Assembly: GCA_031404635.1 (NCBI GenBank)
Contig: JANNHY010000119.1
Span: 1-50,092, forward strand
DNA: 50,092 nt
Origin: Ilumatobacteraceae bacterium
GTDB lineage: Bacteria > Actinomycetota > Acidimicrobiia > Acidimicrobiales > Ilumatobacteraceae
Direction: 5' to 3'
Numbering within the stretch: position 1 is the first letter of the stretch; the number at the start of each line of letters is the position of its first letter. Positions 4,452 to 31,216 of this stretch are shown here, piece by piece. The notes beneath the pieces were generated by a model. It did no database searches. It worked only from the letters and a program-made list of their open reading frames with translations, and was not told the origin of the DNA. The translations under genes were made by a program, and so were the position numbers.

Positions 4452-5105
4452 GAAGACCTCCTCGCCCGTACCGAATTCTTCGCCGATGCGCCGCACGAGG
4501 TGCTGGCCCCGATCGCTGGCGCCGGTCACGAGCAGCATCTGATTCGTGGCGACGTGCTGTTCCACGAAGGCGACATCGCCGAATCCCTGCATCTTGTGCT
4601 GCGCGGCCGCTTGGCGATCGCCATCGCCAACCCGATCGATCACCGCGAGACCGTCGTCGCCCTGATGGAGCCCGGCGACCTGCTCGGCGAGATGGCCATG
4701 CTCGACGGCGGTCCACGGTCGGCGATGGCGCGGGCGCTCGAACCTTCCGCCGTCTTGACCATCCCATTCGAACCGGTGATGGAAGCTTTCCGCAGCGACC
4801 CGAAGCTGTTGTGGGGCGTTACCCGCCTGCTCGCCCAACGCCTCAGGGTCGCCGACGAGGCCCTCGCCGACAGCGTGTTCCTCGATGTCACCGGTCGAAC
4901 GGCGAAGCGACTGCTCGAACTGTCAGAGGGCGTCGACGACTTCATTCTCCCGGTCACGCAGGAGGAGTTGGCCGGCATGGTCGGCGCCTCACGCGAGCGG
5001 GTCAACAAGGCGATCGCCAGCTTCATCCGCCTCGGCTGGATCGACCAGCACGAGCGCAAATACACGATCCTCAAACGCGACAGTCTCGACATCCGGGCCC
5101 GGTAA
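4443..5105 (+). CDS. crp: Crp/Fnr-family cAMP-receptor-like transcriptional regulator
   Basis: A cNMP-binding domain (GDVLFHEGD...LLGEMAMLDGGPRSA) is followed by a C-terminal HTH, RTAKRLLEL...TQEELAGMVGASRERVNKAIASFIRLGWI. This closely resembles actinobacterial Crp/GlxR. Confidence 0.85.
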   Translation: MAHEDLLARTEFFADAPHEVLAPIAGAGHEQHLIRGDVLFHEGDIAESLHLVLRGRLAIAIANPIDHRETVVALMEPGDLLGEMAMLDGGPRSAMARALEPSAVLTIPFEPVMEAFRSDPKLLWGVTRLLAQRLRVADEALADSVFLDVTGRTAKRLLELSEGVDDFILPVTQEELAGMVGASRERVNKAIASFIRLGWIDQHERKYTILKRDSLDIRAR

Positions 5106-5118
5106 GCAGCCAACAGCC

Positions 5119-5167
5119 CGAAGTATGGCCGCACGCGGCCACGATGGCCGCCTGGCACCATACTTCG
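5119..5167. terminator. hairpin between convergent crp and ABC permease genes (possible bidirectional terminator)
   Basis: Perfect 10-bp arms, cgaagtatgg (5119-5128) and ccatacttcg (5158-5167). The loop contains smaller GC palindromes (ggccgc..gcggcc, ggcc..ggcc). There is no clear U-tract. Confidence 0.4.
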
Positions 5168-5173
5168 CTGTGT

Positions 5174-5929
5174 CTACGCGTCGCGGTGGACGGTGATGAC
5201 CGAACCGACCGTCGCAACCAAGGCGGTGACCACGGCGAAGTAGACCCCGCCGGCCACTCGGCTGAGGCTGTCGGTACCGGCCGCGTCGGGGTTGCCGAGC
5301 CCGAAGCCGGAGATGTATGGCAGGAACTTTTGTGGATGGTCGACGCCCGCTGCAGAGAGGATCGCGAGGACGATGTTCTCGACGACCAACGGCCACAGGA
5401 TCAAAACAGCGACTGCGGCCGGGGTGTTGCGGACCACCATGCCGAGCCCGAAGCCGAGCAGGCTGACGATCACGGCGAAGACAACGACGCCTATCAGCGC
5501 GGCTCGTGCTTCGGGGTCGCTGCTCAGCGACAGCGAGGCGCCGCGTGACTTGGCGATCGTTGACGACAGGGCGAAGCAGAACACGACCACCAAAGCCTCG
5601 GCAACGGCGGCGAACAGCGCGGTGACGACAGCCTTGGAGATCAGCACGCGCATTCGCCGCGGTGTCGCCGCGAAGGTCGGGCGAATCGTGCCGTAGGCGA
5701 ACTCGGCACTGATCGACACCGCACCGACCACCCCGAGCAGCAACGCGGTGACCACCGACGACCCGGTGACCAGGCCGACGACGTCGGAGATGCGCAAGTC
5801 GGTCACGTCGCCGAGCGAGGCGACGAGAACGCTGACGATCACGGGGAAGGCAACAGCGATGATGAACAGCACGAAGTTCATTCGCACCGTGCGCAGCTTG
5901 ATCCACTCGCTTCGAATGGTGTCGATCAT
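5174..5929 (-). CDS. ABC-2 type transporter permease
   Basis: The N-terminus IRSEWIKLRTVRMNFVLFIIAV and about 6 hydrophobic segments are typical of ABC-2 exporter permeases. The ATG overlaps the ATPase stop (ATGA at 5926-5929). Confidence 0.75.
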   Translation of the reverse strand: MIDTIRSEWIKLRTVRMNFVLFIIAVAFPVIVSVLVASLGDVTDLRISDVVGLVTGSSVVTALLLGVVGAVSISAEFAYGTIRPTFAATPRRMRVLISKAVVTALFAAVAEALVVVFCFALSSTIAKSRGASLSLSSDPEARAALIGVVVFAVIVSLLGFGLGMVVRNTPAAVAVLILWPLVVENIVLAILSAAGVDHPQKFLPYISGFGLGNPDAAGTDSLSRVAGGVYFAVVTALVATVGSVITVHRDA

Positions 5930-6861
5930 GACGCTCCATGCACCGGCGGCGCGGCGAACTGCTGCGAGGCGAACTGCTGAGCGGTGGCCGTTGCTTTCAG
6001 GAAGGCGTCCTCAAGCGAGCCTGTCTGCGGTGACAACTCGTGCAGCACGATGCCGTCGCGAGCGGCGAGCTCACCGACCTCGACGGCGGTAATGCCACGC
6101 AGCTCGACAGTGGTCGCGTCGACTGTGCCGGCATGGGCGCCCTGCGAGACTGCCGCAGCAGCGAGGGCCTCGACCGCGGGGCTCTTGACCCGCACCCATC
6201 GATCGGCGTGACGTTCGACGAACTCGGGCACCGAACACTGCTCGATCAACCGTCCTTGGCCGATCACCACCAGATCGTTGGCCATCTGGGCCATCTCCGA
6301 CAGCAGGTGGCTGCTGACCAGGACCGTACGGCCCTGCGAGGCGAGATGGACGAGCACGTCACGGATCCAGCGGATGCCCTCCGGGTCGAGTCCATTGGCC
6401 GGCTCGTCGAGCACGACCGTATGCGGGTCACCGAGCAATACGGCGGCCAGCCCGAGTCGTTGGCGCATACCGAGCGAATATGTCTTCACTCGACGTCCAC
6501 CGACGGATTGCAGCCCAACCAGGTCGAGCACTTCTTCGACTCGCGACCGCGGCAGCCGATTGGAGGCCGCCAACCACCGCAAATGGTTGCGCCCACTGCG
6601 ACCCGGATGCACGTAGCCGGCGTCGAGCAGCGCGCCGACCTCGTGCAGGGGTGACGACAACTGGCGATAGACCCGACCTCCGAAAGTTGCGCCACCGGTG
6701 TCAGGGCGATCGAGCCCGAGCATGCAGCGCATCGTGGTGCTCTTCCCCGACCCGTTCGGCCCGAGGAAGCCGGTGACGGTGCCTGGCCTGACTTCGAAGC
6801 TGAGGTGATCGACGGCGGTCGTGCGCCCGAAGTACTTCGAGAGGTCGACGACGCTGATCAC
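5926..6861 (-). CDS. ABC transporter ATP-binding protein (ABC-2/DrrA-like, with C-terminal extension)
   Basis: Walker A GPNGSGKST, signature YSLGMRQRL and Walker B VVLDEPANGLD are present. The GTG start overlaps the stop of the upstream binding-protein gene (GTGA). Confidence 0.9.
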   Translation of the reverse strand: MISVVDLSKYFGRTTAVDHLSFEVRPGTVTGFLGPNGSGKSTTMRCMLGLDRPDTGGATFGGRVYRQLSSPLHEVGALLDAGYVHPGRSGRNHLRWLAASNRLPRSRVEEVLDLVGLQSVGGRRVKTYSLGMRQRLGLAAVLLGDPHTVVLDEPANGLDPEGIRWIRDVLVHLASQGRTVLVSSHLLSEMAQMANDLVVIGQGRLIEQCSVPEFVERHADRWVRVKSPAVEALAAAAVSQGAHAGTVDATTVELRGITAVEVGELAARDGIVLHELSPQTGSLEDAFLKATATAQQFASQQFAAPPVHGAS

Positions 6862-7766
6862 GTGGAGACGATTCCGATGAATTCGTTGGCCACGACCTCG
6901 GGCGAGGCACCGTCGACCTGCAGACGTTTCATCATCGCCGGCAGCTGTTCTGTGGTTATCCGCGCACTGGTCGCGTCGAGAATCGACAGCACGTCGGCCG
7001 TTGCAACGTTGGCGGTGATCAACGGCAGGATCACATCGTTGGGCACGAGCGCCTTGTCGTCTTGCAACACGGTGAAGGTGCCCGTCGACAAACCCGGATC
7101 GGAGGAGCGGGCGACGCCGCAGTCGGCGGTGCCGGCGGTGACAGCTTCGAGGATCTTGTCGCTCGCCGTCGGCACGATCGACTTGAACTCGATCTGGTAG
7201 GTCTCGCTCAATCCAACCGCTCCCATCGGCGCCGCCGTCTCAAAGCCGTCGGGCGCCGCCAACGTGGCCCTGCCGGGCTTGGCACCCAGGTCGGTAAGCG
7301 TGACGATCGTGTTGGCCTCGGTGAAGGTCGTGGTGCAAGCGATGACGTCTTTGTCCTCCGCGGTGGAGAATCCGCCGATCTCCAAGGTGACCGGCATGGC
7401 CTTGACAATAGCGTCGGCCTGCAACGTCGTCGTGTTCGGCACAACGTCGGTCGCGCCGGATTGCACCAACAACCACGACAGCAACGCCTGGCTGGTCGCC
7501 CCGGCCAGTTGCACATCACCAGCTTCGATAGCCGCGTACAAAGCCTCGGGCGTGTCGAACGCCTTCTTGCGGGCAACGCGAAACTCGGCCTTCTCCAGCG
7601 CCTGACCGTAGATTTCGGACAGCAGCTTGCTAGTTGGATCAGTAGTCGAACTGATCGTGATCTTCGGCTTCAGGGCGACAGTCGATTCGCTCGATGTCGT
7701 GTCACCGCATGCGGCGAGCAGAACCAAGGCGGCAAGGGGCAGCTTGAGGGTCGCCGGGGCACGCAC
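6858..7766 (-). CDS. glycine betaine/choline-type (OpuBC/OsmF-like) substrate-binding lipoprotein
   Basis: The lipobox LLAAC follows K/R-containing VRAPATLKLPLAALV. Family-like segments are LLSEIYGQALEKAEFRV, VLQDDKALVPNDVILPLI and QVDGASPEVVANEFI. Start set at the GTG at 7766; the track start at 7853 would overlap the upstream gene. Confidence 0.7.
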   Translation of the reverse strand: MRAPATLKLPLAALVLLAACGDTTSSESTVALKPKITISSTTDPTSKLLSEIYGQALEKAEFRVARKKAFDTPEALYAAIEAGDVQLAGATSQALLSWLLVQSGATDVVPNTTTLQADAIVKAMPVTLEIGGFSTAEDKDVIACTTTFTEANTIVTLTDLGAKPGRATLAAPDGFETAAPMGAVGLSETYQIEFKSIVPTASDKILEAVTAGTADCGVARSSDPGLSTGTFTVLQDDKALVPNDVILPLITANVATADVLSILDATSARITTEQLPAMMKRLQVDGASPEVVANEFIGIVST

Positions 7767-7804
7767 GACACAAGATCGTAGGCGGTCGCGATTGGTGAAG
7801 CGGG

Positions 7805-10387
7805 TCAGTCGTCGGCGGCAAACTTGGCGCGCATCGGCAACGACGTGCGCCACAGGCCGTCGTAGTCGTGTAGCGCCGCGGCGACCGCTGGCGCGGTGGG
7901 CACGAGCCCGATCTCACCGACACCCTTGATCCCATACGGCGACTTCGGTTGCGGCACCTCGACCAGATGCACCTCGATGGGCGGCACGTCCTTGGCGCGC
8001 AGAATGCCGAGTGAACGCAGCGTCATGTTGGTCGGGAATCCGGTCGCCGGATCCGACGGGAAATCTTCGGTGAGCGCGTAGCCGAGGCCCATGTGAACGC
8101 TGCCTTCGATCTGCCCCTCGCACAGGATTGGGTTGACCGCCTTGCCGACGTCGTGGACGGCGACGACCCGTTCGACGTCGCCGCTGTCGCGATCGATCAC
8201 GACCATCTGCGTCGCATAGCCGAAGGCGGCGTGAATCGTCGGATTGGGATGATCGGGATCGCCGATTTGCTGCGTCCAATCGACGACGTGCTCGCCCACG
8301 TAGTCGATATCGGGTTGGCATCCGCCTGCCAGCGCCGCGGCGCAGGCGTCGCGAACGGACCCGGCGGCCATCAGCGTGCCGCGCGACCCGGTGGTCTGCC
8401 CGAAGCCGAGGTCGCGGGTGGTGTCGACGATCACCTCGATGCGATTGGGGTCGATGCCGAGTTCCTGGGCGGCCACCTGCAACGCCACGGTGTGCACGCC
8501 CTGGCCCATCTCGGTCCAGCCGTGGCGAACCTCGACCACACCATCGGCTCGGAACCTCACCACGGCGCGGCACAGCTCGTGGAAGCCGTTGCCGAGACCG
8601 GAGTTCTTCAACCCGAGACCGACCCCTACGGCCTTGCCGTCGGCACGAGCCGAGTCGTAGAGCGGCTTGATCGTGTCGAGGCACGCCTCGGCGCCGCCGC
8701 AGCCCTCGTCCATGATCTGGCCGGGTCCCCACACCTCGCCGGGGTGGATGACGTTGCGCTTGCGCATTTCCCAACCGTCGATACCGACCATGTCGGCGAG
8801 GCGGTCGATGACACCCTCCATGGCGAACTGCGCCTGGTTGGCCCCGAAGCCGCGGAACGCGCCGCAGATCGGGTTGTTGGTGCGCACCGCAACCGCGTGC
8901 ACGTCGATGGCCGGCACCCGGTACGGCCCGCCGGCGTGGCCAGCGGCGCGCTCCAAAACTTTCATCCCCACGCTGGCGTAGGCGCCGCTGTCGCCGATGG
9001 CGCGGACGCGCAAGGCGGTGAGGTGACCGTCGGTGTCGCAGCCGGCCCAGTATTCGAGGCGGATCGGGTGACGCTTGGCGTGGATCAGCAGGCTCTCTTC
9101 ACGCGACAGCGTGCACTTCACCGGGCGATCGAGCAGCCATGCGGCGAGCGAGGCGTGAGTCTGATTGCTCATGTCTTCCTTGCCACCGAACGCCCCACCA
9201 TTTGACACCAGCGTCACCGTGATCGCGTCGTTGCCGACGGCGAGCATGCGGGCGATGTCGTCGCGGTCGTCCCACACACCCTGGCCGCCCGAATAGACCT
9301 GCAGATGGCGCACACCGTCGATCATCGACGGCACGGCCAGCGTGCTCTCGGGTTCGAGGAAGGCCTGCTCGACGCGTTGCGTATGGAAGACCTCGTGCAC
9401 CGTATGGGCGGCGGCGGCGAGACCACCGTCGACGTCGCCGCGCGAATACTCGCTGACACTGAGCACGTTGTCGCTGGTGCCCCACACCGCAACGGGCGAG
9501 CCTTCGGTCAACGCGGCGTCGGCATCGGTGACAAGTTGCAGCACGTCGTAGCCCACCTCGACCAACGCCGCGGCGTCGCGCGCCTGCTGGCGGGTCTCGG
9601 CCACCACAATCGCCAGAACGTCGCCGGCGTAACTGGTGCGTCCACCGATCGGGATCATCACCGGCCAGTCCTTGTAGATGATGCCCATCCGCAGTTCACC
9701 GGGGATGTCGGCAGCGGTCAATACGGCGATGACACCCGGCGCGGCCGCCGCCGCTGTGGTGTCGATCGACAAGATGTCGGCGCGGGCGTGGGCGGTGAGG
9801 TGCAAGGCGGCGTGCACCATGGCTGGTACGCGCATGTCGTCGATGTAGTCACGATCGCCGAGGGTCAGTTCGCCGGCTTCATACCTCGCGCCGGACCCGC
9901 CGACCGTAGCTGCCAAAGCCGGCTCGAACTGCTTGCCCTTGGCAACGGCGTCGATGGCTTCGAGGATCTTGACGTATCCCGTGCAGCGGCACAGGTGGGC
10001 GCCAAGATGTCGTGCCATATCAGCGGGCTGCAGGTCGGCACCTTTCTTGTCGATCTGGGCCTTGGCGCGCATGACGATTCCCGGGATGCAGAACCCGCAC
10101 TGCAGGCCTCCGCATGCGGCGAACGCATCGGCAAAGGCCGTGCGCTCCTCTGCGGCGACGCCTTCCAATGTGGTGACCGCCCGGCCGGCAACCTTGGCCA
10201 GCGACACTTGGCAGCTGACCACGGCCTTGCCGTCGAGGTGCACCGTGCAACATCCGCATTGTCCTGACGGCGAACAACCGTCTTTCGGAGACGTCACGTC
10301 GAGTTCCTCACGGAGCGCGGCAAGCAGGTGCGGATGATCGCCGTGAACTGTCACTGGCTTGCCGTTGAGTTGGAATTCGGTGCTCAC
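7805..10387 (-). CDS. molybdopterin-dependent aldehyde oxidoreductase/xanthine dehydrogenase-family protein with fused N-terminal 2x[2Fe-2S] domain (MOP-like, no FAD domain)
   Basis: The N-terminus carries CSPSGQCGCCTV and CGGLQCGFCIPG...CRCTGY cluster motifs. A large Mo-cofactor domain follows (GGAFGGKE, FRGFGANQ, GQGVHT, VGEIG). GTG start at 10387. Confidence 0.85.
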   Translation of the reverse strand: MSTEFQLNGKPVTVHGDHPHLLAALREELDVTSPKDGCSPSGQCGCCTVHLDGKAVVSCQVSLAKVAGRAVTTLEGVAAEERTAFADAFAACGGLQCGFCIPGIVMRAKAQIDKKGADLQPADMARHLGAHLCRCTGYVKILEAIDAVAKGKQFEPALAATVGGSGARYEAGELTLGDRDYIDDMRVPAMVHAALHLTAHARADILSIDTTAAAAAPGVIAVLTAADIPGELRMGIIYKDWPVMIPIGGRTSYAGDVLAIVVAETRQQARDAAALVEVGYDVLQLVTDADAALTEGSPVAVWGTSDNVLSVSEYSRGDVDGGLAAAAHTVHEVFHTQRVEQAFLEPESTLAVPSMIDGVRHLQVYSGGQGVWDDRDDIARMLAVGNDAITVTLVSNGGAFGGKEDMSNQTHASLAAWLLDRPVKCTLSREESLLIHAKRHPIRLEYWAGCDTDGHLTALRVRAIGDSGAYASVGMKVLERAAGHAGGPYRVPAIDVHAVAVRTNNPICGAFRGFGANQAQFAMEGVIDRLADMVGIDGWEMRKRNVIHPGEVWGPGQIMDEGCGGAEACLDTIKPLYDSARADGKAVGVGLGLKNSGLGNGFHELCRAVVRFRADGVVEVRHGWTEMGQGVHTVALQVAAQELGIDPNRIEVIVDTTRDLGFGQTTGSRGTLMAAGSVRDACAAALAGGCQPDIDYVGEHVVDWTQQIGDPDHPNPTIHAAFGYATQMVVIDRDSGDVERVVAVHDVGKAVNPILCEGQIEGSVHMGLGYALTEDFPSDPATGFPTNMTLRSLGILRAKDVPPIEVHLVEVPQPKSPYGIKGVGEIGLVPTAPAVAAALHDYDGLWRTSLPMRAKFAADD

Positions 10388-10394
10388 GTTTTAC

Positions 10395-10404
10395 ATATTG
10401 TCAA
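10395..10404 (-). promoter_or_regulatory. possible extended -10 element (TGaCAATAT) 7 nt upstream of the GTG of the Mo-enzyme gene (leaderless candidate)
   Basis: The minus strand reads ccTTGACAATATGTAAAACGTG. This AT-rich island fills the 13-nt gap and overlaps the TGA of the upstream ATPase gene. Confidence 0.25.
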
Positions 10405-13400
10405 GGTTTGCCCGGAATTGAAACCGGCACGGTCAATCCGCCGACCGAATCGACCGCCACTTGAGCCAGGACGGTCTCACCATCGCTGATCAGCCACACC
10501 AGCCCTGGTCGCGCCGCGATCGGCATCCGCGGCAGCACGGCACCGAGCAGGTCGCCGTCGAGATCGCTCGCTGCAGTGGTGACGATGCCGAGCCGGCTGC
10601 GCCGCACCACACCGGTCCAGTGTCCGTAGCTCTGGCGCAACGAGTCCGGTTTGCCGGTCGCAACGATCATCAGCCCGTGGCGACGCGATGCCGCCAGCGA
10701 GGCGAGCGCACCGCCGACATCGTCGACCAATTCGCCGTCGTCGATGGCAATCAGCACCCGGCCGTCGGGTGGAACGTCGTCTATGATCTCAGCGAGCGAG
10801 CGATAACGGTGCTCGGCATCGAGCGCGGTGCGACGTGGCGCGACGATTCGCCACCAGCCGTTCGGGTAGGCGTCGAGCCATGCCCGCACCATCCGTTGCA
10901 GCGCCGTGCTGCGCCCCGACCGTGGCGGCCCGACGATCAACACGTGCTCGCCGTCGGGCACGTCGACGTTGCAGACCCGGCCGTCGCCGAAGCGCAGGCC
11001 CAGCGGGAGCAACGAGTCGTCACCGCACCCGACCCCGGGCGGAAGACTGCCGGCGTCGACGTTTGCCGGCAGGCACTCGACCGGCGGCGGAATCGTTCCG
11101 TCGACGCAGGCCGGCAGCGGCAACGGGCCGACCATCAACTGGGCCTCGAGGCCACTCGCGGCCACGACGATCCGCCCTTGTCGTGGCCCGGGGACATCGG
11201 CCGCGGCTATCCCCAGCCCAGCAGCATCGAGCGGATCGGTGAGGTGGAAGATCCACCGTTGTGCACAGCGGGCCAACGTGCTCGATGGAATGGCGGCGAC
11301 GCGATCGAACGCACAGACCACGACGACGTCGTGCGCCGCACCGAGAGCGATGATCATGTCGACCATCTCGAATTCGGCGGCGGTTTCGAGATCGTCGAGC
11401 GCGCTGCGTACTGCGTCGAGCCCGTCGACCAGGACGACAATCGGGTACCGCGGCACGGTCGGATCGGCGATCCGCTGACCGACCTCGTCGGCCAACCGGT
11501 TGATCAACCTGATCAAGCGCTCACGTTCGTGCAGGCGCACGAGACCCCCACATCGCGGCGAGCGTTCGAACGTGGCCAGAGCCTGATCGCCGCGACCGTC
11601 GATCACATACAAATGACACCCGCTGCCGTCGGTCGCGGCAACTGTGCCGAGCAGCATCAGCGTCGACGTCACCCCGCTGCCCGTGGCGCCGACAAGCAGC
11701 AGATGGCCCTCGGCGCGGTTCCATCGCAGCGGCAACACGCGTTGCCCGTCGGGATCGTCGACCAGGCCGACGATCCCCTGGGCGACCAGTGCTTCGTCCG
11801 CCGGAAGGTGTGCGGGAAGAGGAGCCGGCCAAGGCGAATCCGGCGGTCGAGCACCGACCAATACCGCTGCATCACGAACCGCACCGACCAGCAGATCGAG
11901 TTCGCTGCCGCCTTGCCCCAACGGCGTCGTGCACCGCGCCGTCTGGAACGTGAGCAACTCGTCGGGGCCGAGTCGCATCACGGCACGACCGGCCAGACCG
12001 CGCGGGATCGCTGCCGGCGCACTGTCGCCAACGACGTCGATGGCGTCGGCGCTGTCGTGCAACCGCAGGGAGACTCTCAGGTTGGTGTTGGCCCGGATGT
12101 CGTCGCTGATCACACCGCTCGGGCGTTGGGTGGCCAGGATCAGGTGCACCCCGAGGCTGCGGCCGCGCTGGGCGATCCCGACAAGGGCGTGCAAAAAGTC
12201 GGGCTGCTCGCTGACCAAAGCGGCAAACTCATCGATCACCACCACCAGGCGGGGCAGCAACTCGTTAGGGGCCAGGCGACGGTAGGAAGCAAGGTCGGCG
12301 GCGCCGGCTGCGCGCAACAGTTGTTCACGGCGGCGCAACTCGGCGTGCAGACAGCGCAATGCGCGGTTGGCGAGATGTTGGTCGAGATCGGTCACGACGC
12401 CAACCACGTGCGGTAGCTGGGCGCAGGCGTCGAACGTCGAGCCACCCTTGTAGTCGATGAGAACGAACGTGAGTTGGTCGGGACTCGATGCAGCCGCTAA
12501 TCCTACGACCAGGCTGCGCAGCAGTTCGCTCTTGCCGGCACCGGTGGTTCCGGCCATCAGCGCGTGGGGGCCGTCGCGGTCGAGATCGACATCGACCACG
12601 CCATCGCCGGCGACACCGATCACGGTGCGCGGTGGCGGGTCGACGCCGCCGGCTACCCACGAGGCCGCAATCGCTGCCGGTTCGTGCGACAGCAACAACG
12701 ACAGCATGGTGACGTCGTGTGGGATGCTGCCTGCGGCGCCCAGTGGATCCTCGGGATCGAGCAACCCGCTCAAACAGCCGGCCAACCTCGCCGCGCTCCG
12801 CTCGCTGATCCCGAAGCAGCGGGCCTGAACCGGCAACGATGCAATCGCTGCGTCGGCGTGCCACCTGGCCTTCATCGGACCGCACAGATCGAGCAGGGAC
12901 GAACACACATGCGGAATCCCGCCGTCGGCGTCGATCAGAACGATCAGGGCTACTGAGCGACCAGATGTGACCACCCGGCGCAACGAGCTTGTACGCGCCG
13001 CCAACAGCTCCGGTGCGTCGGTGATCATCACGAGATGGGGGTGTGGTGCGACGTCGGATTCGGCTACGGCCTCGAGCAGCTCGGCCTCGGTGACCACGGC
13101 GTCAAGACCCGACGTCGTTGTGGCGTGTGGCAATCGCTCCAGCCACCGCCACCGCGCCGGTTGGTGGGTGACCACGACGAAGCGCACGTCGGCCGGCCCG
13201 CAGTTGGCGGCGAGTTGCATCACGATCGAGCGGGTCGCCGCGCGTGCCCGATCGGCGTCGCCGCGTACCCCCAGTCGGCATGCCGCGCCGATATCGGCCA
13301 CCACGGGCAGGTCGGGGAGCATCGACATCGTGGCGAGGCTCGCCGCCGCCCGGTTCACACCTGAGCCGTCGTCGAGTCGAGGAGCCCAGGCGACCCTCCC

Positions 13401-14231
13401 CAATCCGATCGACACGGCGAAGCCGTCGGGGTGCGTTCCCCGGCGAGCCCACAACTCGCTCGTGCGCCTCTCGATCGCCGACCTGGCCGACACCGGCGTC
13501 GAGACGCTTGCCAACTGATGGGCCACAAACCCGGCACGCTGCGCTTCGACTGCACGTTCGAATTCGGCGGTGCCGCCGCGTCGAGACCGCTCGTCGCGCC
13601 GCCGGCGGCGGAACAGGGTGATTCGCTGACCACCCCATGTTGCGAACGCCACGATGGCGCCTATCGCACCGAACAGCAGAAACATCGGTTGGTGCAAGAG
13701 TGCGGCCACGAGGCCAGATCCAGCGAGGGCGAGGACCGCCGGAAGGACGCCGCCGCTGGTCTCGCCTCGGGCCGGTCGCTCGGTGGGCGGGCTCACTGGA
13801 TCGGGATTCCACGCCACGGCGGCTCGTGGGCAGCGCACCACCACACTTCCCTTGAGCGTCGCGGTGATGTTGGCAGATTCTCCGATGCTGGCCCTATCTG
13901 GCCCCTGACCAGGTGCTGTGAGATCTCGTCGACGGGCTGTGAGGATGCTGTGGCCGATCTCGAGTTGAGCCTCGGCGACGATCAGCCTCGAATCGGCGAT
14001 CGCTTCACCATCGACCCGCACCGGCACGCGCCCGGTCAACTGACGCATTGTGGCGCCGTCGGGCGAGATTTCGATCAGCAGGTGATGGGGCTCGAGCGCA
14101 CCATCATCGCATCGCAGCGCCGCACCGGGGGCTCGGCCGACGACGTGGGTGCCGCATCCGAGCACCACCATCCCACCGGCGTCGGGGCCTGCCACCCAGA
14201 CGAGTGTCCAACTGTCTGTGCTGTCTGTCAT
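10401..14231 (-). CDS. FHA domain-containing FtsK/SpoIIIE-family triple P-loop ATPase (EssC/EccC-like, type VII secretion-type architecture)
   Basis: Start taken at the ATG at 14231 (MTDSTDSWTLVWVAGPDAGG...). There is an FHA-like N-terminus, then two hydrophobic helices (VLPAVLALAGSGLVAALL / MFLLFGAIGAIVAFATW). D1 has GTTGAGKS, VVVIDEFAAL and LILATQRPS. D2 has GATGSGVT and D3 has GPPRSGRS. Confidence 0.85.
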   Translation of the reverse strand: MTDSTDSWTLVWVAGPDAGGMVVLGCGTHVVGRAPGAALRCDDGALEPHHLLIEISPDGATMRQLTGRVPVRVDGEAIADSRLIVAEAQLEIGHSILTARRRDLTAPGQGPDRASIGESANITATLKGSVVVRCPRAAVAWNPDPVSPPTERPARGETSGGVLPAVLALAGSGLVAALLHQPMFLLFGAIGAIVAFATWGGQRITLFRRRRRDERSRRGGTAEFERAVEAQRAGFVAHQLASVSTPVSARSAIERRTSELWARRGTHPDGFAVSIGLGRVAWAPRLDDGSGVNRAAASLATMSMLPDLPVVADIGAACRLGVRGDADRARAATRSIVMQLAANCGPADVRFVVVTHQPARWRWLERLPHATTTSGLDAVVTEAELLEAVAESDVAPHPHLVMITDAPELLAARTSSLRRVVTSGRSVALIVLIDADGGIPHVCSSLLDLCGPMKARWHADAAIASLPVQARCFGISERSAARLAGCLSGLLDPEDPLGAAGSIPHDVTMLSLLLSHEPAAIAASWVAGGVDPPPRTVIGVAGDGVVDVDLDRDGPHALMAGTTGAGKSELLRSLVVGLAAASSPDQLTFVLIDYKGGSTFDACAQLPHVVGVVTDLDQHLANRALRCLHAELRRREQLLRAAGAADLASYRRLAPNELLPRLVVVIDEFAALVSEQPDFLHALVGIAQRGRSLGVHLILATQRPSGVISDDIRANTNLRVSLRLHDSADAIDVVGDSAPAAIPRGLAGRAVMRLGPDELLTFQTARCTTPLGQGGSELDLLVGAVRDAAVLVGARPPDSPWPAPLPAHLPADEALVAQGIVGLVDDPDGQRVLPLRWNRAEGHLLLVGATGSGVTSTLMLLGTVAATDGSGCHLYVIDGRGDQALATFERSPRCGGLVRLHERERLIRLINRLADEVGQRIADPTVPRYPIVVLVDGLDAVRSALDDLETAAEFEMVDMIIALGAAHDVVVVCAFDRVAAIPSSTLARCAQRWIFHLTDPLDAAGLGIAAADVPGPRQGRIVVAASGLEAQLMVGPLPLPACVDGTIPPPVECLPANVDAGSLPPGVGCGDDSLLPLGLRFGDGRVCNVDVPDGEHVLIVGPPRSGRSTALQRMVRAWLDAYPNGWWRIVAPRRTALDAEHRYRSLAEIIDDVPPDGRVLIAIDDGELVDDVGGALASLAASRRHGLMIVATGKPDSLRQSYGHWTGVVRRSRLGIVTTAASDLDGDLLGAVLPRMPIAARPGLVWLISDGETVLAQVAVDSVGGLTVPVSIPGKP

Positions 14232-14302
14232 CACCCAAATGAGGCACAGCGACCGCCCACAGGCGGAAGATCGCCGGGCGGTCACGGTAGGGGATCTGTC
14301 CG

Positions 14303-14335
14303 GGTGAGACCATCGGTGAAGGCAGCGGTGAGACC
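14303..14335 (+). promoter_or_regulatory. three phased direct repeats GGTGA (two extended to GGTGAGACC) at 12-bp spacing in the divergent intergenic region
   Basis: GGTGAGACC at 14303 and 14327, and GGTGA at 14315. The site is 32 nt upstream of the ATG at 14367 and between the two divergent starts (14231 and 14367). Confidence 0.35.
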
Positions 14336-14366
14336 GGCGATGAGAGGCGAGGCGCACGCTTTGGTC

Positions 14367-15092
14367 ATGACGACACTTCCCAACCACAGGTACGTGCTCA
14401 CCCGGCTACAGCACGAATGGAACCTGCTCAGTTGTCGACGTTCCGCCGTGCGGCGTGCCACCGCCTGGAAGCTGACGCCACGAGTGCTCGGTTCTCTCGA
14501 CGAGCTGCTCGCGCTGACCGGCCTTGGTGCGGCACCCGCGGATGCGTCGAGCGACGAGACGATGCGCCGGCTGGTCGCTTTGGCCCGTCACGACGATCTC
14601 GCCGCGCGGGTGGTGTTGCAGCGCATGCTTCCCGGTCTCAGCGCCTGTGCCAGGCGCAACTCGGCGAGCTTCGACGCCCGGCTCGATGCGCTCGACGAGC
14701 TGCTCTCCGAGGCCTGGGGGGTGATCCGCTCGTTCCCGATCGAGCACCGCGACCGCTACGTCATCAAGAACCTGCTGCGCGACTGCGAGTACCGGGCCTT
14801 CCTCAAGGCTCGACGGCGGATGCTGATCCACGAACTCACCGATCCCGCCCATCTCGATCTGGCGATCGAACCCGACGATTCCGTGGGCGAGCCGCTGGCC
14901 ACCATCGTCGATCTGCTCTGCCGGGCGCGGGCGGCCGGAATGAGCGACGCCGACGTCGCTGTGGTGACAACGTTGTTGAACACCTCAACGGTCCAGCAGG
15001 CCGCTGCCGCGTTGCGAGTGACGGAGCGGACCGTGCGCAACCGGCGCCAGGTCGCCGTGCGCCAATTACGGGCGTTGGCCGACGTGGCCTGA
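14367..15092 (+). CDS. ECF-like sigma-70 family / HTH DNA-binding protein
   Basis: Start at the ATG at 14367 (MTTLPNHRY...). A region-2-like segment (DDLAARVVLQRMLPGLSACARR...LLSEAWGVIRSF...NLLRDCEYRAFLKARRR) is followed by a region-4-like HTH (STVQQAAAALRVTERTVRNRRQVAVRQLR). The upstream 312 codons of the track ORF are antisense to the ATPase gene. Confidence 0.55.
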   Translation: MTTLPNHRYVLTRLQHEWNLLSCRRSAVRRATAWKLTPRVLGSLDELLALTGLGAAPADASSDETMRRLVALARHDDLAARVVLQRMLPGLSACARRNSASFDARLDALDELLSEAWGVIRSFPIEHRDRYVIKNLLRDCEYRAFLKARRRMLIHELTDPAHLDLAIEPDDSVGEPLATIVDLLCRARAAGMSDADVAVVTTLLNTSTVQQAAAALRVTERTVRNRRQVAVRQLRALADVA

Positions 15093-15154
15093 CACCTACC
15101 CGGTTTCGCCGACCAACGACTCCAGATGGGCTGCGGCGTGACTGAAGTCGTGGA

Positions 15155-15931
15155 TCAGGGGCGGTCGGTGAACGTCGCCTTGCGCTTTTCGAGGAAAGCG
15201 GCGATGCCCTCTTGGGCGTCGTGGGTGGTGGCCGAGTGCGACATCACCTCGACGGCGTAGACATAGGCGTCGGTCTGACCGAGTTCGGTCTGGGCGTAGT
15301 AGCCACGCTTGCCTGCGGCCTTCGAGGCGACGCTGCCACGTGTGGCCCGAGACAACAGGTCGTGCACCGCGCTGTCGAGCTGATCGTCGGGCACGGCGTA
15401 GTTGATCAAGCCCCACGACACCGCCGTCGCCGCGTCGATCGGGTCACCGGTGAGGGCCATCTCGAGGGCCCGTTTGCGGCCGACGTTGCGCGCCACGGCG
15501 ACCAACGGCGTGTGGCAGAACAGCCCACCCTTTCCGCCCGGGATCGCGAACGCCGCACTGTCGGCGGCAATCGCCAGGTCGCACGTTGCCACCAGTTGGC
15601 ATCCCGCTGCGGTGGCCAGGGCGTGGACCTTGGCGATGACAGGCTGCGGGATCGATTGGATCGTGTTCATCATCTCGGTGCACACGTCGAACAGATGGCT
15701 GGCCTGTTCGATGTCGGCGCCGGCCATGTCGGCGAAGTTGTGACCCGCCGAGAACACCGGGCCGTTGGCGGCGAGAATCACCCCGATGGCGGCGCTCGAC
15801 CCAACCGCACGGAAGGCCTCGGTGAGTTCGAGCATCACATCGAGGGCCAGGGCATTGCGCTTCTCTGGTCGGTTGAGGGTAATGGTGGCAAACGGCCCGT
15901 CGCAGTCGAGGATCACATGGTGGTACGTCAC
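15155..15931 (-). CDS. enoyl-CoA hydratase/isomerase (crotonase) family protein
   Basis: Translation reads ATITLNRPEKRNAL...VFSAGHNFADM...GGKGGLF, the crotonase fold motifs. GTG start. Confidence 0.9.
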   Translation of the reverse strand: MTYHHVILDCDGPFATITLNRPEKRNALALDVMLELTEAFRAVGSSAAIGVILAANGPVFSAGHNFADMAGADIEQASHLFDVCTEMMNTIQSIPQPVIAKVHALATAAGCQLVATCDLAIAADSAAFAIPGGKGGLFCHTPLVAVARNVGRKRALEMALTGDPIDAATAVSWGLINYAVPDDQLDSAVHDLLSRATRGSVASKAAGKRGYYAQTELGQTDAYVYAVEVMSHSATTHDAQEGIAAFLEKRKATFTDRP

Positions 15932-16020
15932 CGAGCCAGTGTGCCACGAACTCGCAGCTGGTCGCTGCGGCTACCCACGGCGGCAAGGATTCAACCGAGG
16001 GCTGATCGGCGAAGTCCGGG

Positions 16021-16049
16021 TTGGCAACTTATATCCATTTGGATATGCT
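16021..16049 (+). promoter_or_regulatory. sigma-70-like promoter (TTGGCA-17 nt-TATGCT) with embedded palindromic operator ATATCCA-tt-TGGATAT
   Basis: -35 at 16021-16026 and -10 at 16044-16049. A perfect 7-bp inverted repeat at 16031-16046 sits in the spacer. This is a locally AT-rich patch, followed by the AGGAGG SD at 16056 and the ATG at 16068. Confidence 0.5.
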
Positions 16050-16067
16050 CACCCTAGGAGGTGGACC

Positions 16068-16643
16068 ATGACCGTTGCAGCTCGACTCCTTCGACACGCC
16101 CGACACAGCACACTGCTCAGCCAGTCCGCGCTCGCGGCCAAGGTCGGCTTTCGGCAATCGAACGTCTCCCGCCTCGAATCGGAACGACGCGATGTGAACG
16201 TCGACACCCTCGATCGCTTGTTGCGAGCGACCGGGTTTCGCCTCGCCGCGCTCCCGACACAGAGCGCAGCGGTCGCCGAAGCCGCAGACTCCACGGCTCG
16301 CTTTGTCGCCGCCGACAACGAGGAGGGTGCTTATCGAGCCGTCATCCAATTGGCAGACGACCTTGCTCGCGAACATGGTGCAGAGCGAGTCGCGTTGACG
16401 GTCGCGCCCCCGCCGCCCACGGGCGATGAGCGCTTCGATGCATTCATCGCCGGCGTAGTCGATTTTCGACTGGCAGACGAGAATCTGCCTCGCCCGAAGT
16501 GGCTGACCGACAGCCCTCGCCTCGCCTCGCCGTGGTTCGTTGACCGTTGGTCGATCGGCAACCCGAGCGTCATCGAGGCCACACCGCCCCAACTGCGAAC
16601 TCGTGGAGTGATTATCGACGCTGCAGAACTGGCCAGCGTATGA
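16068..16643 (+). CDS. XRE-family HTH transcriptional regulator (putative antitoxin) with uncharacterised C-terminal domain
   Basis: Strong SD (ctAGGAGGtgg) 6 nt before the ATG. The N-terminal HTH is LLSQSALAAKVGFRQSNVSRLESERRDVNVDTLDRLL. The stop overlaps the start of the next gene (ATGA). Confidence 0.85.
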   Translation: MTVAARLLRHARHSTLLSQSALAAKVGFRQSNVSRLESERRDVNVDTLDRLLRATGFRLAALPTQSAAVAEAADSTARFVAADNEEGAYRAVIQLADDLAREHGAERVALTVAPPPPTGDERFDAFIAGVVDFRLADENLPRPKWLTDSPRLASPWFVDRWSIGNPSVIEATPPQLRTRGVIIDAAELASV

Positions 16644-17188
16644 CTCTGGATCGTGACGACATCGTGGCAGGACTCGGCGAGCTTGCCGGCGAGTTGGATG
16701 CTGTCGGGCTAGAGCTCACGATTCATGTGGTCGGCGGCGCTGCAATCGCATTGGAGTACAACACCGATCGCCAAGCAACCAGCGACATCGACGCCTGGGT
16801 CAACGCCCGACCAGTGGTCCGCGAACAGGTTGTTGATGTGGTGAAACAGATCGCCATCCGTCGACGCTGGCCCGACGATTGGCTCAACGAGAAGGCCGTG
16901 ATGTTCATCCCAGAAGGCGTCGGCGCCGGCCCCGAGGATTGGCGGCCGACACTCGAGGTTGGCAAGGTACGCGTCTTCGTCGCGCAGCCAATGGTGCTGT
17001 TGGCGATGAAGCTCCGCGCAGGTCGAGGAAGACGAGACCTCCCCGATCTCGAACCGCTCCTCGCTGCCTCGGGGCTTCACACGATTGAGGACGTCCAAGA
17101 AACCTTCGATGGCTACTACCCGCACGACGACATGAGGCCGCTCTCTCGTCACTGGCTCGAACAGAACCTGCCACATCGCACCCCATGA
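16640..17188 (+). CDS. minimal nucleotidyltransferase-fold protein (AbiEii/MenT-like or DUF-type NTase; putative toxin)
   Basis: The motif VVGGAAIALEYNTDRQATSDIDAWV fits the GG-x(n)-D-x-D nucleotidyltransferase signature. The protein is 182 aa and translationally coupled to the XRE gene. Confidence 0.6.
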   Translation: MTLDRDDIVAGLGELAGELDAVGLELTIHVVGGAAIALEYNTDRQATSDIDAWVNARPVVREQVVDVVKQIAIRRRWPDDWLNEKAVMFIPEGVGAGPEDWRPTLEVGKVRVFVAQPMVLLAMKLRAGRGRRDLPDLEPLLAASGLHTIEDVQETFDGYYPHDDMRPLSRHWLEQNLPHRTP

Positions 17189-20430: not shown

Positions 20431-23148
20431 ATGGGGATCGGTCGGCGCGGGACTGTGGTTGTGGGCCGCGGTACTGAGTTGGCGCTGCTCAGCGGTGTGC
20501 TGCGCAACCTCGATCGCGGCACCGGGGTAACGATCAGGTTGCGCGGCGACGTGGGAATCGGCAAGACCACCATGCTCGACTGGGTGACCGTGCAGGCTCG
20601 CGCTGCTGTTGTTCGCCTAACCGGATCGGAGTCCGAGGCAGAGTTGGCCTATTCGGGGCTGGCCTCGATGCTCAAGGCATTCGAGGTACTTCACGTTGCG
20701 GTGCCCAGCCCGCACGCTCGGGTGCTGGCCGGGGCGATCGGCCGCGGGTCGACACAGGGCCAACTGGCAGTCGGCGGCGCCACCCTCGCCGCGATCGCAG
20801 CTGCCGGCGAGCAGGCGCCACTCGTGTTACTGATCGACGATGCCCAGTGGCTGGATGAGCCATCCTCCTCGGCGCTGGCGTTTGCCCTACGACGGCTGCC
20901 CGACGAGCCGGTGGTGGCGGTCATCACCGAGCGCTCCGACATGCCGTCGAAGTTCGACAGTGCCGGCTTCGAAACCATCGAGCTCAAGGGTCTCAACGTC
21001 GACGATGCGATTGCGATGTTGGGCACCGAAACGGACCGCGCCGTCGCTCAGCGATGTGTCGACGCTGCGGGAGGCAGCCCGTTGGCGCTGGGTGAGCTGG
21101 CAAGTCTTCTGGATCGCGATCAGCTCGCCGGGCGCTGCCCGCTACCGAACGACCTGCCTGTCGGCAACGGGCTGATCCGCTCGTTCGTCGATCGCATCAT
21201 TGCCCTCGACCCGAGCGCCCAGAGAGGCTTGGGCGTGGTCGCAGCTGCGCTCGACCCAACGGCCGCCGACATCCACGCCGCCGCTGATCGAATTGGGGCC
21301 ACCGTCGCCGATCTCAGCGCTGGCGAGGCGGCCGGTGTTATCAGCGTGTCGTCGGAGCACATCGAACTGACCCATCCGCTGATGCGTTCGGCGATACGCG
21401 ACGCGATCGGTCCGCAAGCGATGCGCGACGCACACGCTGCCTTGGCCGAGGTGGTAGGTGACGCCGACAAGCGAGCGTGGCACCTGGCATCGGCGACGGC
21501 GGGCCCCGACGCAGTCGTTGCCGATGCCCTCGAACAGGTCGCAACCGTCGCCGACCGCGGTGGGGCCTGGTCGGCTGCGGCCGTCACATGGGAACGGGCG
21601 GCGGCATTGTCGACGGATCTGGCAAAGCGTCATCGCCGCCTGCTAGCCGCTGGCGCGTCGCGTTGGAACGCCTCTGACCCGTACGGGGCGATCGCGGTGC
21701 TCGACGAGGTGGTGGCGTTGTCTGACGACGTGTTGGTTCGATCCGATGCCATCAGCATTCGCTCCGATGGGATTGCCTGGATGATCGATCAGGACCGCGG
21801 TATCGCCGAGCTGGCCGACGAGGCCCACCGGATGTCCACCATCGATCCGTCGCGTTCCATCGGCCTGTTCATCCGCGCCGCGTTGCACGGCGGCCTCTCC
21901 GGCCGACCGGTTGATTGTCAACGGCACGCTCAGTCAGCTGTCGAGGTGGCGCACCAACTCGGGCTACCGATGATCGTCGCCGCCAAGGCGGTCCGGGCGA
22001 TGTCATCGCAGCGGCTCGGCGACCGCGACGGCGCCGAGGCCGATTTCGACGCGGCCCGCGTCCTCGGCTCGCTGCCGGTCGAGATGCTCGGTGCCCAGCT
22101 ACTTCCTCTTCTCCAAGCACTGGCCGTCGCCCTATTGACTCAGGAACGGTGGACCGAGGCCAACGAGATACTCGACCTGTCGATGACTGCCGCCCGACGT
22201 CACGGGCTGGCTTCGGTGCTCGGCTTCAGCGGCGCGCTGCAGGGTGAGCTGTATCTCCGCAGCGGGCGGTTGACCGACGCTGTGCTGTCCTCCCTGCTCG
22301 ACGTCGATCTCAACGACACTCCCGACTTGCCAACGGCGTCGTTCGGTCAAGCCGTTCTGTCGAGAGTCGAGGCTGTACTCGGGCGCACGCAGAGCGCGCG
22401 CATGCATGCAGAATCGGCCATTGCTCGCGCCCGACGAGTCGGGCTGGGGGTACTCGAGACGTGGGCGCTGTCAGCCCTCGGTCACGTCGCCCTCACCACC
22501 GGCAGGTATCTCGAAGCAGCCGAGCACTTCCGCCGCGTCCACCGCCTGCACGCCGGCGTGCTCGATGCCGGTGACCTGTGGTATCAGGGCGATCTGCTCG
22601 AAGCGTTGTTCGCCATCGGCGCTGTCGACGAGGCGGCCGCTGTGGTCGCCGATGTCGCCGAGAAGGCCGAGCGAAGCGGGTCGAAGTGGGGCGCAGCGGT
22701 CGTTCTGCGTGGGCAGGGAATGCTGCACGGCCGCCCTGCCGATCTGCACGACTCCGCCGAGCAACTTGCCGCGCTGGGTGCACCGTGCGAGCAAGCCCGG
22801 AGCTTGTTGCTACTCGGCGAGCGCCACGGCGATCACCAGGCATCGAGCGCCGCTTTGCGCATCTTCGAGCGAATCGGCGCCGACCCGTGGGCCGCCCAGG
22901 CCAGGCGCATCGCCGGGCCAGTTGCCCCGACCAGTTCGTCGCTGGCCTCGCGGTTGACCAACGACGAGTTGCGTGTCGCCGTATCGATCGCCCGCGGTCG
23001 CAGCATCCGGCAAGTAGCCGACGAGCTGTACCTCAGCCCGAAGACGGTCGACGCACATCTCCACGCAATCCTGCCCAAGCTCGGGGTGCGCGATCGGGCC
23101 GAACTGACGATGCTGGTCAACCGCGACATCGAGCAGGCGCCGGTCTGA
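20431..23148 (+). CDS. LAL-type (large ATP-binding LuxR family) transcriptional regulator
   Basis: N-terminal P-loop GDVGIGKTT and Walker-B-like LLIDDAQWLD, a long helical/TPR-like middle, and a C-terminal LuxR HTH, LTNDELRVAVSIARGRSIRQVADELYLSPKTVDAHLHAILPKLGV. Confidence 0.9.
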   Translation: MGIGRRGTVVVGRGTELALLSGVLRNLDRGTGVTIRLRGDVGIGKTTMLDWVTVQARAAVVRLTGSESEAELAYSGLASMLKAFEVLHVAVPSPHARVLAGAIGRGSTQGQLAVGGATLAAIAAAGEQAPLVLLIDDAQWLDEPSSSALAFALRRLPDEPVVAVITERSDMPSKFDSAGFETIELKGLNVDDAIAMLGTETDRAVAQRCVDAAGGSPLALGELASLLDRDQLAGRCPLPNDLPVGNGLIRSFVDRIIALDPSAQRGLGVVAAALDPTAADIHAAADRIGATVADLSAGEAAGVISVSSEHIELTHPLMRSAIRDAIGPQAMRDAHAALAEVVGDADKRAWHLASATAGPDAVVADALEQVATVADRGGAWSAAAVTWERAAALSTDLAKRHRRLLAAGASRWNASDPYGAIAVLDEVVALSDDVLVRSDAISIRSDGIAWMIDQDRGIAELADEAHRMSTIDPSRSIGLFIRAALHGGLSGRPVDCQRHAQSAVEVAHQLGLPMIVAAKAVRAMSSQRLGDRDGAEADFDAARVLGSLPVEMLGAQLLPLLQALAVALLTQERWTEANEILDLSMTAARRHGLASVLGFSGALQGELYLRSGRLTDAVLSSLLDVDLNDTPDLPTASFGQAVLSRVEAVLGRTQSARMHAESAIARARRVGLGVLETWALSALGHVALTTGRYLEAAEHFRRVHRLHAGVLDAGDLWYQGDLLEALFAIGAVDEAAAVVADVAEKAERSGSKWGAAVVLRGQGMLHGRPADLHDSAEQLAALGAPCEQARSLLLLGERHGDHQASSAALRIFERIGADPWAAQARRIAGPVAPTSSSLASRLTNDELRVAVSIARGRSIRQVADELYLSPKTVDAHLHAILPKLGVRDRAELTMLVNRDIEQAPV

Positions 23149-30852: not shown

Positions 30853-30936
30853 CGTCGAATCGTAAACCGATTTCCGCTGCAGGCGACTCGCCGTGCCTCT
30901 TTGTGGTGAGCAACCTGCTCCACGAGGAGGAACGAC

Positions 30937-31206: not shown

Positions 31207-31216
31207 CAATCACAGC

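Follow-up and report, generated by a model that had tools for sequence, protein, structure and literature searches.

The subject of this study is a single gene within a 50,092-nucleotide stretch of DNA from an Ilumatobacteraceae bacterium (assembly GCA_031404635.1, contig JANNHY010000119.1), referred to here as the window. The gene encodes an ATPase that joins an N-terminal FHA-fold domain to a predicted membrane anchor and three P-loop modules (D1, D2, and D3). The best-supported explanation is that this ATPase is the motor of a type VII secretion system (T7SS) that is pared down and scattered over the genome of an Ilumatobacteraceae-like member of the Acidimicrobiia, and a probability of about 0.6 is attached to it. 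This reading is favored because the protein has the architecture of EccC, its D1 module is constrained in 73 of 73 family members, its relatives are encoded in the company of WXG100, toxin, and kinase genes, and a WXG100-like gene is loosely linked to it in the window. A minimal or dispersed T7SS was one of the possibilities raised in the initial annotation of the locus, and it is the one to which the EccC/EssC-type layout, the WXG100 contexts of the relatives, and the WXG100-like gene of the window point.

Domain architecture and family placement of the ATPase

The open reading frame (ORF) of the ATPase starts at the ATG at 14231 and is intact over 1276 codons, with the frame open as far as a GTG at 14387. 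The product comprises one FHA-fold domain, two neighboring hydrophobic helices, an EccC-type stalk/DUF region, and three tandem P-loop modules (Table 1). The two-helix anchor with its stalk/DUF, and the three modules with canonical Walker A and B motifs in D1, are features of T7SS motors. The FHA-like N-terminus, hydrophobic helices, and three P-loop modules of the initial annotation are borne out, and the motifs quoted there lie within 3 nt of their recomputed positions. The Walker A motif of D1, GTTGAGKS, occupies residues 561–568 (nt 12528–12551, exactly as first given), followed by VVVIDEFAAL (nt 12216–12245) and LILATQRPS (nt 12117–12143). The Walker A motif of D2 reads GATGSGVT (nt 11667–11690, an end corrected from 11693), and VLVDGLD occupies the Walker B position (nt 11415–11435). 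The Walker A motif of D3, GPPRSGRS, lies at nt 10908–10931, corrected from 10905–10934. The absence of the Walker lysine from D2, the VLVDGLD sequence, and the replacement of lysine by arginine in D3 all agree with the first description.

Searches with Pfam identified FtsK_SpoIIIE in two stretches (4.5e-47), while the P-loop of D3 was matched by nSTAND_NTPase5 at residues 1096–1194. Among the NCBIfam hidden Markov models (HMMs), the ATPase scored 319.8 bits with EssC (TIGR03928, cut-off 778.4), 288.2 with EccCa (TIGR03924, cut-off 509.15), and 194.4 with EccCb (TIGR03925, cut-off 346.55). The EccCa model spans residues 150–767, and the EccCb model matches in two stretches. The best solved relative is EccC of Thermomonospora curvata, 4nh0 (3.9e-70, 240 bits, with an alignment that begins at residue 303). 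EccC5 stands behind 4nh0 among the solved-structure matches, and its stalk fragment, 8rin, matches residues 268–379. On the basis of the HMM ranking, the best match to 4nh0, and the EccC5 stalk match, the layout is that of EccC with an added FHA domain. The firmicute EssC layout first proposed for the protein is not upheld, since there is one FHA domain and not two, and YukB of Bacillus subtilis reaches 170 bits compared with the 240 bits of 4nh0.

The comparison with known systems is consistent with this placement. The ATPase shares with EccC of T7SSa (T. curvata 4nh0 and mycobacterial EccC5) the two N-terminal transmembrane helices, the stalk/DUF, and three modules of which only D1 has a full Walker A/B pair. 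The 'DG' and 'DD' Walker B sequences of D2 and D3 are also as in NCBI-named EccC. It differs from EccC in its FHA domain, in the Lys-to-Val and Lys-to-Arg changes of D2 and D3, and in scores below the TIGR03924 and TIGR03925 cut-offs. Unlike a T7SSa (ESX) locus, the window has no EccB/D/E or MycP genes. The features shared with EssC/YukB of the Bacillota (T7SSb) are an FHA-type N-terminus, two transmembrane helices, three modules, and likely a single WXG100 partner of the homodimer type. In contrast with EssC, which has two FHA domains, the ATPase has one; it is less similar to YukB than to EccC, falls below the TIGR03928 cut-off, and has no EssA/EssB/EsaA/EsaB genes in the window.

The close family of the ATPase consists of proteins with 70–83% identity in Ilumatobacteraceae metagenome-assembled genomes (MAGs), in whose metagenomes the subfamily is widespread, and of more distant, mostly unlabelled metagenomic relatives with 43–59% identity in the protein database. 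FHA-FtsK/SpoIIIE proteins of Actinomadura, Kineococcus, Streptosporangium, Streptomyces, and others are ∼30% identical. A scan of genome contigs with the family alignment gave no relative above 40% identity among the matches listed, and a look-up of recorded contigs that encode the window protein itself gave none. In a neighbor-joining tree, the window subfamily groups with FHA-bearing actinobacterial proteins, outside the canonical, named EccC group and apart from a firmicute/Coriobacteriia EssC-like group; the tree, made from a fast alignment without bootstrap support and with a few stop-to-stop ORFs out of place, is crude and serves for coarse grouping only. Judged by sequence, the ATPase belongs to an uncharacterized Acidimicrobiia (Ilumatobacteraceae) subfamily within a wider actinobacterial FHA-bearing clade.

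The Walker motifs are strongly conserved within the subfamily. The Walker A and B motifs of D1 are canonical in all 73 full-length close family members. The same 73 proteins keep a lysine-less loop of the GSGVTS type and a VDGLD Walker B in D2, and RSGRST with DDAE in D3. Since these variants are conserved across the 73 members, the degenerate D2 and D3 sites are selected states and not decay or sequencing noise. RSGR[ST] marks D2 as well as D3 across the whole actinobacterial FHA-bearing clade, and the Lys-to-Arg change of D3 extends to members that adjoin WXG100 genes. Outside the window subfamily, most clade members have RSGR[ST] or GKT as the D2 Walker A, and NCBI-named EccC has GK[ST] in D2 and D3. 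Across these alignments, only the Lys-to-Val change of D2 is peculiar to the Acidimicrobiia subfamily.

The earlier FHA assignment fails as a single-sequence Pfam call and stands by family profile and structure model. The scan of the ATPase gave no match to PF00498, and PF16697 (Yop-YscD_cpl), a model of the FHA clan, reached 27.1 bits at the N-terminus (cut-off 33.2). A profile built from the N-termini of 14 family members, however, matches FHA structures, including Ki-67 (2e-6), FhaA (5.8e-6), OdhI/GarA, EmbR, and YscD. The AlphaFold (AF2) model of residues 1–112 has a pLDDT of 88.2, and every top Foldseek match to it in the PDB is an FHA domain (TM-score 0.78–0.89; OdhI/FhaA/GarA). The profile and the model make the FHA fold solid at family level. 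The domain is single and not a tandem pair, and ∼60 residues separate it from the transmembrane helices. Profile and motif comparison with relatives shows that the window subfamily keeps Arg33 and has lost the Asn, with Glu47 (LEPHH) in place of the Ser that binds phosphothreonine (pThr). The canonical triad (GR...SxxH...NG) is retained in some wider-clade relatives. Because the pThr-binding Ser and the Asn are gone, the motifs suggest, by analogy with EssC and YscD, that the domain binds its partner without the need for a phosphate group. For EssC, the FHA domain has likewise been reported to be without the pThr-binding consensus (PMC11217815).

The initial annotation held that actinobacterial EccC normally lacks FHA; such fusions have, however, already been described in Actinomycetota. 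In T7SSd of Olsenella and Bifidobacterium, the ATPase TsdC carries an FHA domain and is accompanied by a WXG100 protein and the kinase TsdD (Garrett et al. 2024; PMC11217815). The Esr-Esx pathway of Actinomycetes includes EsrG, a protein with an FHA domain that in some cases occurs as a fusion with EccC (PMC13622651). That pathway is reported to be confined to the class Actinomycetes (PMC13622651), and the lineage of the window is Acidimicrobiia. Like TsdC and EsrG-EccC, the window ATPase is an actinobacterial ATPase of the T7SS type that begins with an FHA domain. Its wider-clade relatives resemble the TsdC and Esr systems in what is encoded beside the ATPase, namely WXG100 proteins, a Zn-ribbon-FHA protein, and Ser/Thr kinases, of which one has a beta-propeller. 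The pThr site is kept in TsdC and degenerate in the window subfamily, although some wider-clade relatives do show T7SSd features. Unlike T7SSd loci, the window has no Pkinase, TsdH, or TsdI-like gene, and Coriobacteriia loci cluster with firmicute EssC in the neighbor-joining tree. The FHA-EccC fusion is therefore not new in Actinomycetota; the Acidimicrobiia subfamily is an uncharacterized variant of it.

The WXG100-like gene of the window and WXG100 genes beside related ATPases

The wider-clade relatives of the ATPase provide its functional context. The relatives' loci (L004–L041) come from the genome-contig scan, and counts hold among the matches listed. Relatives with ∼30–37% identity adjoin bona fide WXG100 genes (PF06013 at 3.6e-17, 8e-20, and 3.5e-22), T7SS_signal proteins, an RHS toxin, and Ser/Thr kinases. 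The Kineosporia locus (L009) combines a WXG100 gene (3.6e-17) with a 1645-residue RHS toxin that carries an N-terminal T7SS_signal/WXG100 domain. The Microbacterium locus (L041) has two WXG100 genes (8e-20 and 1.9e-10), a WXG100_2 protein, and a Zn-ribbon-FHA protein. Directly 3′ of the ATPase, a Frankia locus (L024), the locus L034, and the locus of an Acidimicrobiia MAG (L007) each have a T7SS_signal protein and a small WXG-like gene. Ser/Thr kinases stand beside the ATPase in at least five loci, one of these kinases having a beta-propeller.

HMMs built from the WXG100 genes that adjoin related ATPases match one ORF of the window, at 4.7e-8 and 5.9e-12 (Table 1). When HMMs from 22 clusters of wider-clade neighbor genes were applied to the window (Tad genes, kinases, and proteins of ∼550–960 residues among them), this ORF was the only match. 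The gene has a strong ribosome-binding site (GAGGAGGA) 6 nt 5′ of its ATG and a terminator-like stem-loop after its stop codon. It is masked by an overlapping minus-strand ORF (29620–31209) that is an artefact, as the divergent M20 peptidase truly starts at 30853. Pfam WXG100 (PF06013) matches the product at 1.7e-3 and 19 bits, below the cut-off of 27.3, and the family profile matches EsxA of Staphylococcus aureus at 1.8e-4. The AF2 model (pLDDT 90.4) is a helical hairpin with helices at residues 8–38 and 44–87 joined by a turn, and the top 40 Foldseek matches in the PDB are all WXG100 proteins, with a TM-score of about 0.8. The central turn reads W-E-G, in which W41 and G43 are invariant in 30 sequences. 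Orthologs are 69–93% identical across Ilumatobacteraceae; JGI labels them YukE, and one NCBI entry is labelled WXG100 family target.

The W-x-G-turn hairpin and the superposition of the model on EsxA/EsxB structures align the product with WXG100 proteins. It differs from them as a stand-alone gene with a sub-cut-off Pfam score and no visible YxxxD/E signal in the C-terminal tail (...NRSSELQRVMGAR). The WXG100-like gene and the ATPase share a contig in three genomes, at distances of 16.7 kb in the window, 28.1 kb in GCA_038234785.1, and 56.7 kb in contig_3355 of ERZ25039539. The gene in each case lies on the opposite strand, on the side of the ATPase that carries the divergent sigma-like gene described below, and is never adjacent to the ATPase. 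By analogy with characterized systems, the WXG100-like protein is likely to be a substrate or cofactor of the ATPase. The description of the ATPase as an orphan with no other T7SS core genes nearby thus overlooked this gene, and it holds for the remaining core components: among nearly all plausible ORFs of the window, Pfam scans detected none for EccB/D/E, MycP, EssA/B, or EsaA and none for a kinase. EccB/D/E and MycP were likewise absent from the called genes within 10 kb in four orthologous loci (L001–L003 and L088). A search with the T7SS_signal protein of L007 gave 34 matches, none labelled Ilumatobacteraceae, and is uninformative on substrates in this lineage.

Table 1. Positions of the ATPase gene, its domains, and associated elements in the window
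Feature	Position	Strand	Basis and remarks
ATPase gene, 1276 aa, FHA, two transmembrane helices, stalk, D1, D2, and D3 (EccC/EssC-like T7SS motor)	10401–14231	−	ORF, translation, HMM and PDB matches
FHA-fold domain, single	13929–14210	−	aa 8–101; profile, AF2 and Foldseek matches, motif comparison
Two neighboring hydrophobic helices, predicted membrane anchor	13629–13751	−	aa 161–201; Kyte-Doolittle scan
EccC-type stalk/DUF region, membrane anchor to D1	12732–13430	−	aa ∼268–500; EccCa model, 4nh0 and 8rin alignments
D1, canonical ATPase module	11922–12728	−	GTTGAGKS, VVVIDEF, LILATQRPS
D2, degenerate module	11082–11834	−	Walker A GATGSGVT (Lys to Val), Walker B VLVDGLD
D3, module with Arg-type Walker A	10452–11054	−	GPPRSGRS; Walker B DDGE
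WXG100-like (EsxA-like) gene, 89 aa	30937–31206	+	HMMs, family profile, AF2/Foldseek; 16.7 kb from ATPase
ECF-like sigma/LuxR-type HTH protein, 241 aa, divergent from ATPase	14367–15092	+	Ortholog HMM and profile matches, adjacency
Four direct repeats, exact 12-nt period, consensus sCGGTGAGnnnn	14301–14348	+	Ends 18 nt 5′ of the sigma-like start codon

The divergent sigma-like gene and the surrounding locus

The gene divergent from the ATPase encodes a protein that resembles extracytoplasmic function (ECF) sigma factors and LuxR-type helix-turn-helix (HTH) regulators. The window protein has no Pfam match above cut-off, and its matches to TIGR02937 are weak and partial. Its orthologs span positions 4–164 of the 165 of TIGR02937 (sigma70-ECF) at 24.7–28.9 bits (cut-off 42.9) and also match GerE. 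The family profile matches GerE/FixJ HTH structures, the C-terminal HTH being of the GerE/LuxR type. The sigma-like gene is adjacent to the ATPase and divergent from it in all six genome loci and in 25 of 28 metagenomic loci, the latter taken from a scan seeded with the window sigma-like protein (matches of at least 33% identity with enough flank, the ATPase scored by its FHA-ATPase N-terminus). A group of sigma-like paralogs with 29–31% identity has the ATPase in none of six loci. The sigma-like gene is a stable, tightly linked partner of the ATPase. The proteins of ∼210 residues beside relatives' ATPases were considered as homologs of the sigma-like protein and rejected, as they are not homologous apart from one weak GerE match.

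Within the 135 nt that separate the sigma-like gene from the ATPase lies an array of GGTGAG repeats with a fixed period (Table 1). The repeat pattern is unique in the window, with two overlapping matches against 0.04 expected by chance. Arrays of 3–4 units in the same phase are present in 24 loci, namely the window, five orthologous loci (L001, L002, L003, L006, and L088), and 18 metagenomic loci (within L090–L123), for a total of 82 units. The positions of the unit left free by the search pattern are conserved at 87% (G8), 85% (C2), and 82% (G4), while T5, G6, and A7 are fixed by the RTGA pattern itself. A conserved −10-like element, GCAYsnT, follows 3′ of the array, and the sigma-like start codon follows at a fixed distance. 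The array may serve the divergent gene pair as an operator or promoter element, and the sequence pattern suggests activator or repressor boxes directly next to a promoter from which the sigma-like gene would be transcribed with a short leader or none. In the window the repeats keep the frame of each flanking ORF, but L001 shows an offset of 28 nt and both frames would use the rare codons AGA/TCT, and a coding role was rejected on these grounds. The sigma-like/ATPase intergenic region has no Rfam family match, the array was not called by TRF, and a sigma-70 promoter scan found nothing. A single GGTGAGC/GATGAGC box also lies 26–33 nt 5′ of the WXG100-like start codon in four of four loci (∼30899–30910 in the window; L086, L087, and L089). 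The box is a weak lead toward co-regulation of the WXG100-like gene with the sigma-like gene, the motif being short.

The five orthologous loci, in which ATPase identity ranges from 77% down to 37%, have a common gene order, in which ECH and the divergent sigma-like gene precede the ATPase, and a variable insert separates the ATPase from OpuAC, ABC ATPase, ABC-2 permease, Crp, IspDF, and SpoU. The flanks first described, a divergent sigma-like gene on one side and a xanthine dehydrogenase (XDH)-like gene, OpuAC, ABC ATPase, and ABC-2 permease downstream on the other, are present as claimed. A comparison of synteny in relatives had also been proposed; it identifies the sigma-like gene as the conserved neighbor and the Mo-oxidoreductase as a lineage-specific insertion.

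Other features of the region were also observed. A copper-resistance block (CsoR-like repressor, HMA protein, and P-type ATPase) with a low-molecular-weight phosphatase lies between ECH and the sigma-like gene in L001–L003 and L088 (about 5000–9100). The block is absent from the window (15093–15154), where ECH abuts the sigma-like gene. Beside the ECH gene of the window, an HTH_31 protein (15765–16643) overlaps a DUF6036/AbiEii-like nucleotidyltransferase (16547–17188) in what looks to be a toxin–antitoxin-like pair. The remnant of a large LuxR-type regulator extends over three reading frames at 45270–45920 on the plus strand (weak AAA_16 at 45270–45602, GerE HTH at 45663–45920) and is probably a frameshifted pseudogene; an intact paralogue type of 905 residues is present at 20431–23148.

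Alternative readings and implications

As the motor of a dispersed T7SS, the ATPase would form a membrane-anchored hexamer in which D1 hydrolyzes ATP and drives export, by analogy with EccC and EssC. The same analogy would make D2 and D3 non-catalytic modules for regulation or substrate docking, and a WXG100 homodimer the substrate or cofactor. The FHA domain may dock a partner without recognizing phosphorylation, as noted above for EssC and YscD, and the sigma-like protein together with the GGTGAG array may control transcription of the divergent pair.

Several observations weigh against this reading. The ATPase falls far below the cut-off of all curated T7SS ATPase models in NCBIfam. The Walker lysine is gone from its D2 module, in contrast to most relatives that are linked to a T7SS. 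Neither the window nor the surroundings of the ATPase within 10 kb in the five orthologous loci yielded a membrane core component, a kinase, or a T7SS_signal/LXG substrate. The WXG100-like gene is loosely linked and lies within a housekeeping synteny block, such that its co-location could reflect conserved chromosome order; because the whole region is syntenic, linkage alone is no proof of a joint function of the ATPase and the WXG100-like protein.

A repurposed motor is an alternative explanation, unlikely overall. The ATPase would descend from EccC-like T7SS proteins but would no longer secrete WXG100 proteins or toxins in this lineage, and would serve as a signaling or quality-control ATPase with the sigma-like regulator, or export another cargo. 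Its tight, conserved partner is indeed the sigma-like gene and not a WXG100 gene, and neither a substrate nor a membrane partner is encoded next to it. The loss of the D2 lysine specifically in the window subfamily and the degenerate pThr site of the FHA domain are in keeping with a change of function; the strict conservation of D1 and of the overall EccC layout is not. Moreover, the highly conserved WXG100-like gene stays in the same chromosomal region in three genomes, and nothing positive was found for another cargo.

A DNA pump of the FtsK/SpoIIIE/TraB type, acting in chromosome segregation, conjugation, or DNA uptake, is very improbable. Such translocases combine a single motor with a gamma (DNA-recognition) domain, whereas the ATPase has three modules and an EccC stalk that fit T7SS ATPases, with no gamma domain among its Pfam matches. 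The Pfam FtsK_SpoIIIE domain is compatible with this alternative, but the NCBIfam FtsK model reaches 72 bits against a cut-off of 1566, over D1 only, and TraB reaches 30 bits. A Tad/Flp pilus cluster directly beside the FHA-ATPase in at least eight loci (L004, L005, L020, L023, L030, L032, L033, and L035) is the other point in its favor. These loci are mostly from Streptosporangiales and encode proteins ∼30% identical to the window ATPase; the clusters contain T2SSE, two T2SSF, TadE genes, and an A24 peptidase. Several of the same loci also have a WXG100 gene downstream, however, and no Tad genes are present in the window. No relevant account of FHA-FtsK proteins linked to Tad loci emerged from a literature search.

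A joint role of the ATPase with the operon that follows it (XDH-like Mo enzyme, OpuAC-like binding protein, and ABC-2 transporter), for example in the export or assembly of the operon's products, draws on the 13-nt gap to the XDH gene and a 4-nt overlap of the ATPase and OpuAC genes in L003, but it is barely credible and was rejected as not conserved, given that the XDH gene follows the ATPase only in the window and L001 and is absent from L002, L003, L006, and L088 (a two-component system replaces it in L002 and L088, unrelated ORFs in L006), and that the ABC ATPase, Crp, and ECH neighbors are 67–90% identical core genes in generally conserved synteny. Because a simple scan shows no terminator-like site in the 13-nt junction, the ATPase and the gene at 7805–10387 are probably co-transcribed in the window, without a conserved functional link. 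The latter gene, on the minus strand, encodes a fused 2Fe-2S and molybdopterin enzyme of the XDH family that scores 808 bits with the selenium-dependent xanthine dehydrogenase model (cut-off 830).

Functional work on T7SS has been carried out in mycobacteria, in Bacillota, and recently in oral Actinomycetes. No paper came up in a full-text literature search that combined 'Acidimicrobiia' with 'type VII secretion'. The unusual features of the dispersed T7SS proposed here are a naturally lysine-less D2 beside an Arg-type D3, an FHA domain that looks phospho-independent, and a sigma-like regulator with a distinctive repeat array as its putative operator. If the ATPase and the WXG100-like protein work together, the lineage would offer a simple test bed for a minimal T7SS in which the motor and the WXG100 protein are encoded apart, and would caution that 'orphan' EccC genes can have unlinked partners. 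A more specific version, which is speculative and more doubtful than the repurposed motor, is a two-protein T7SS consisting of the FHA-EccC-like motor and one WXG100 protein, without dedicated membrane partners and controlled by a private ECF-like sigma factor through the phased GGTGAG array. If such a two-protein system were true, the EccC hexamer would need to make up the translocation channel by itself, and the system would provide a minimal model for what makes the T7SS pore.

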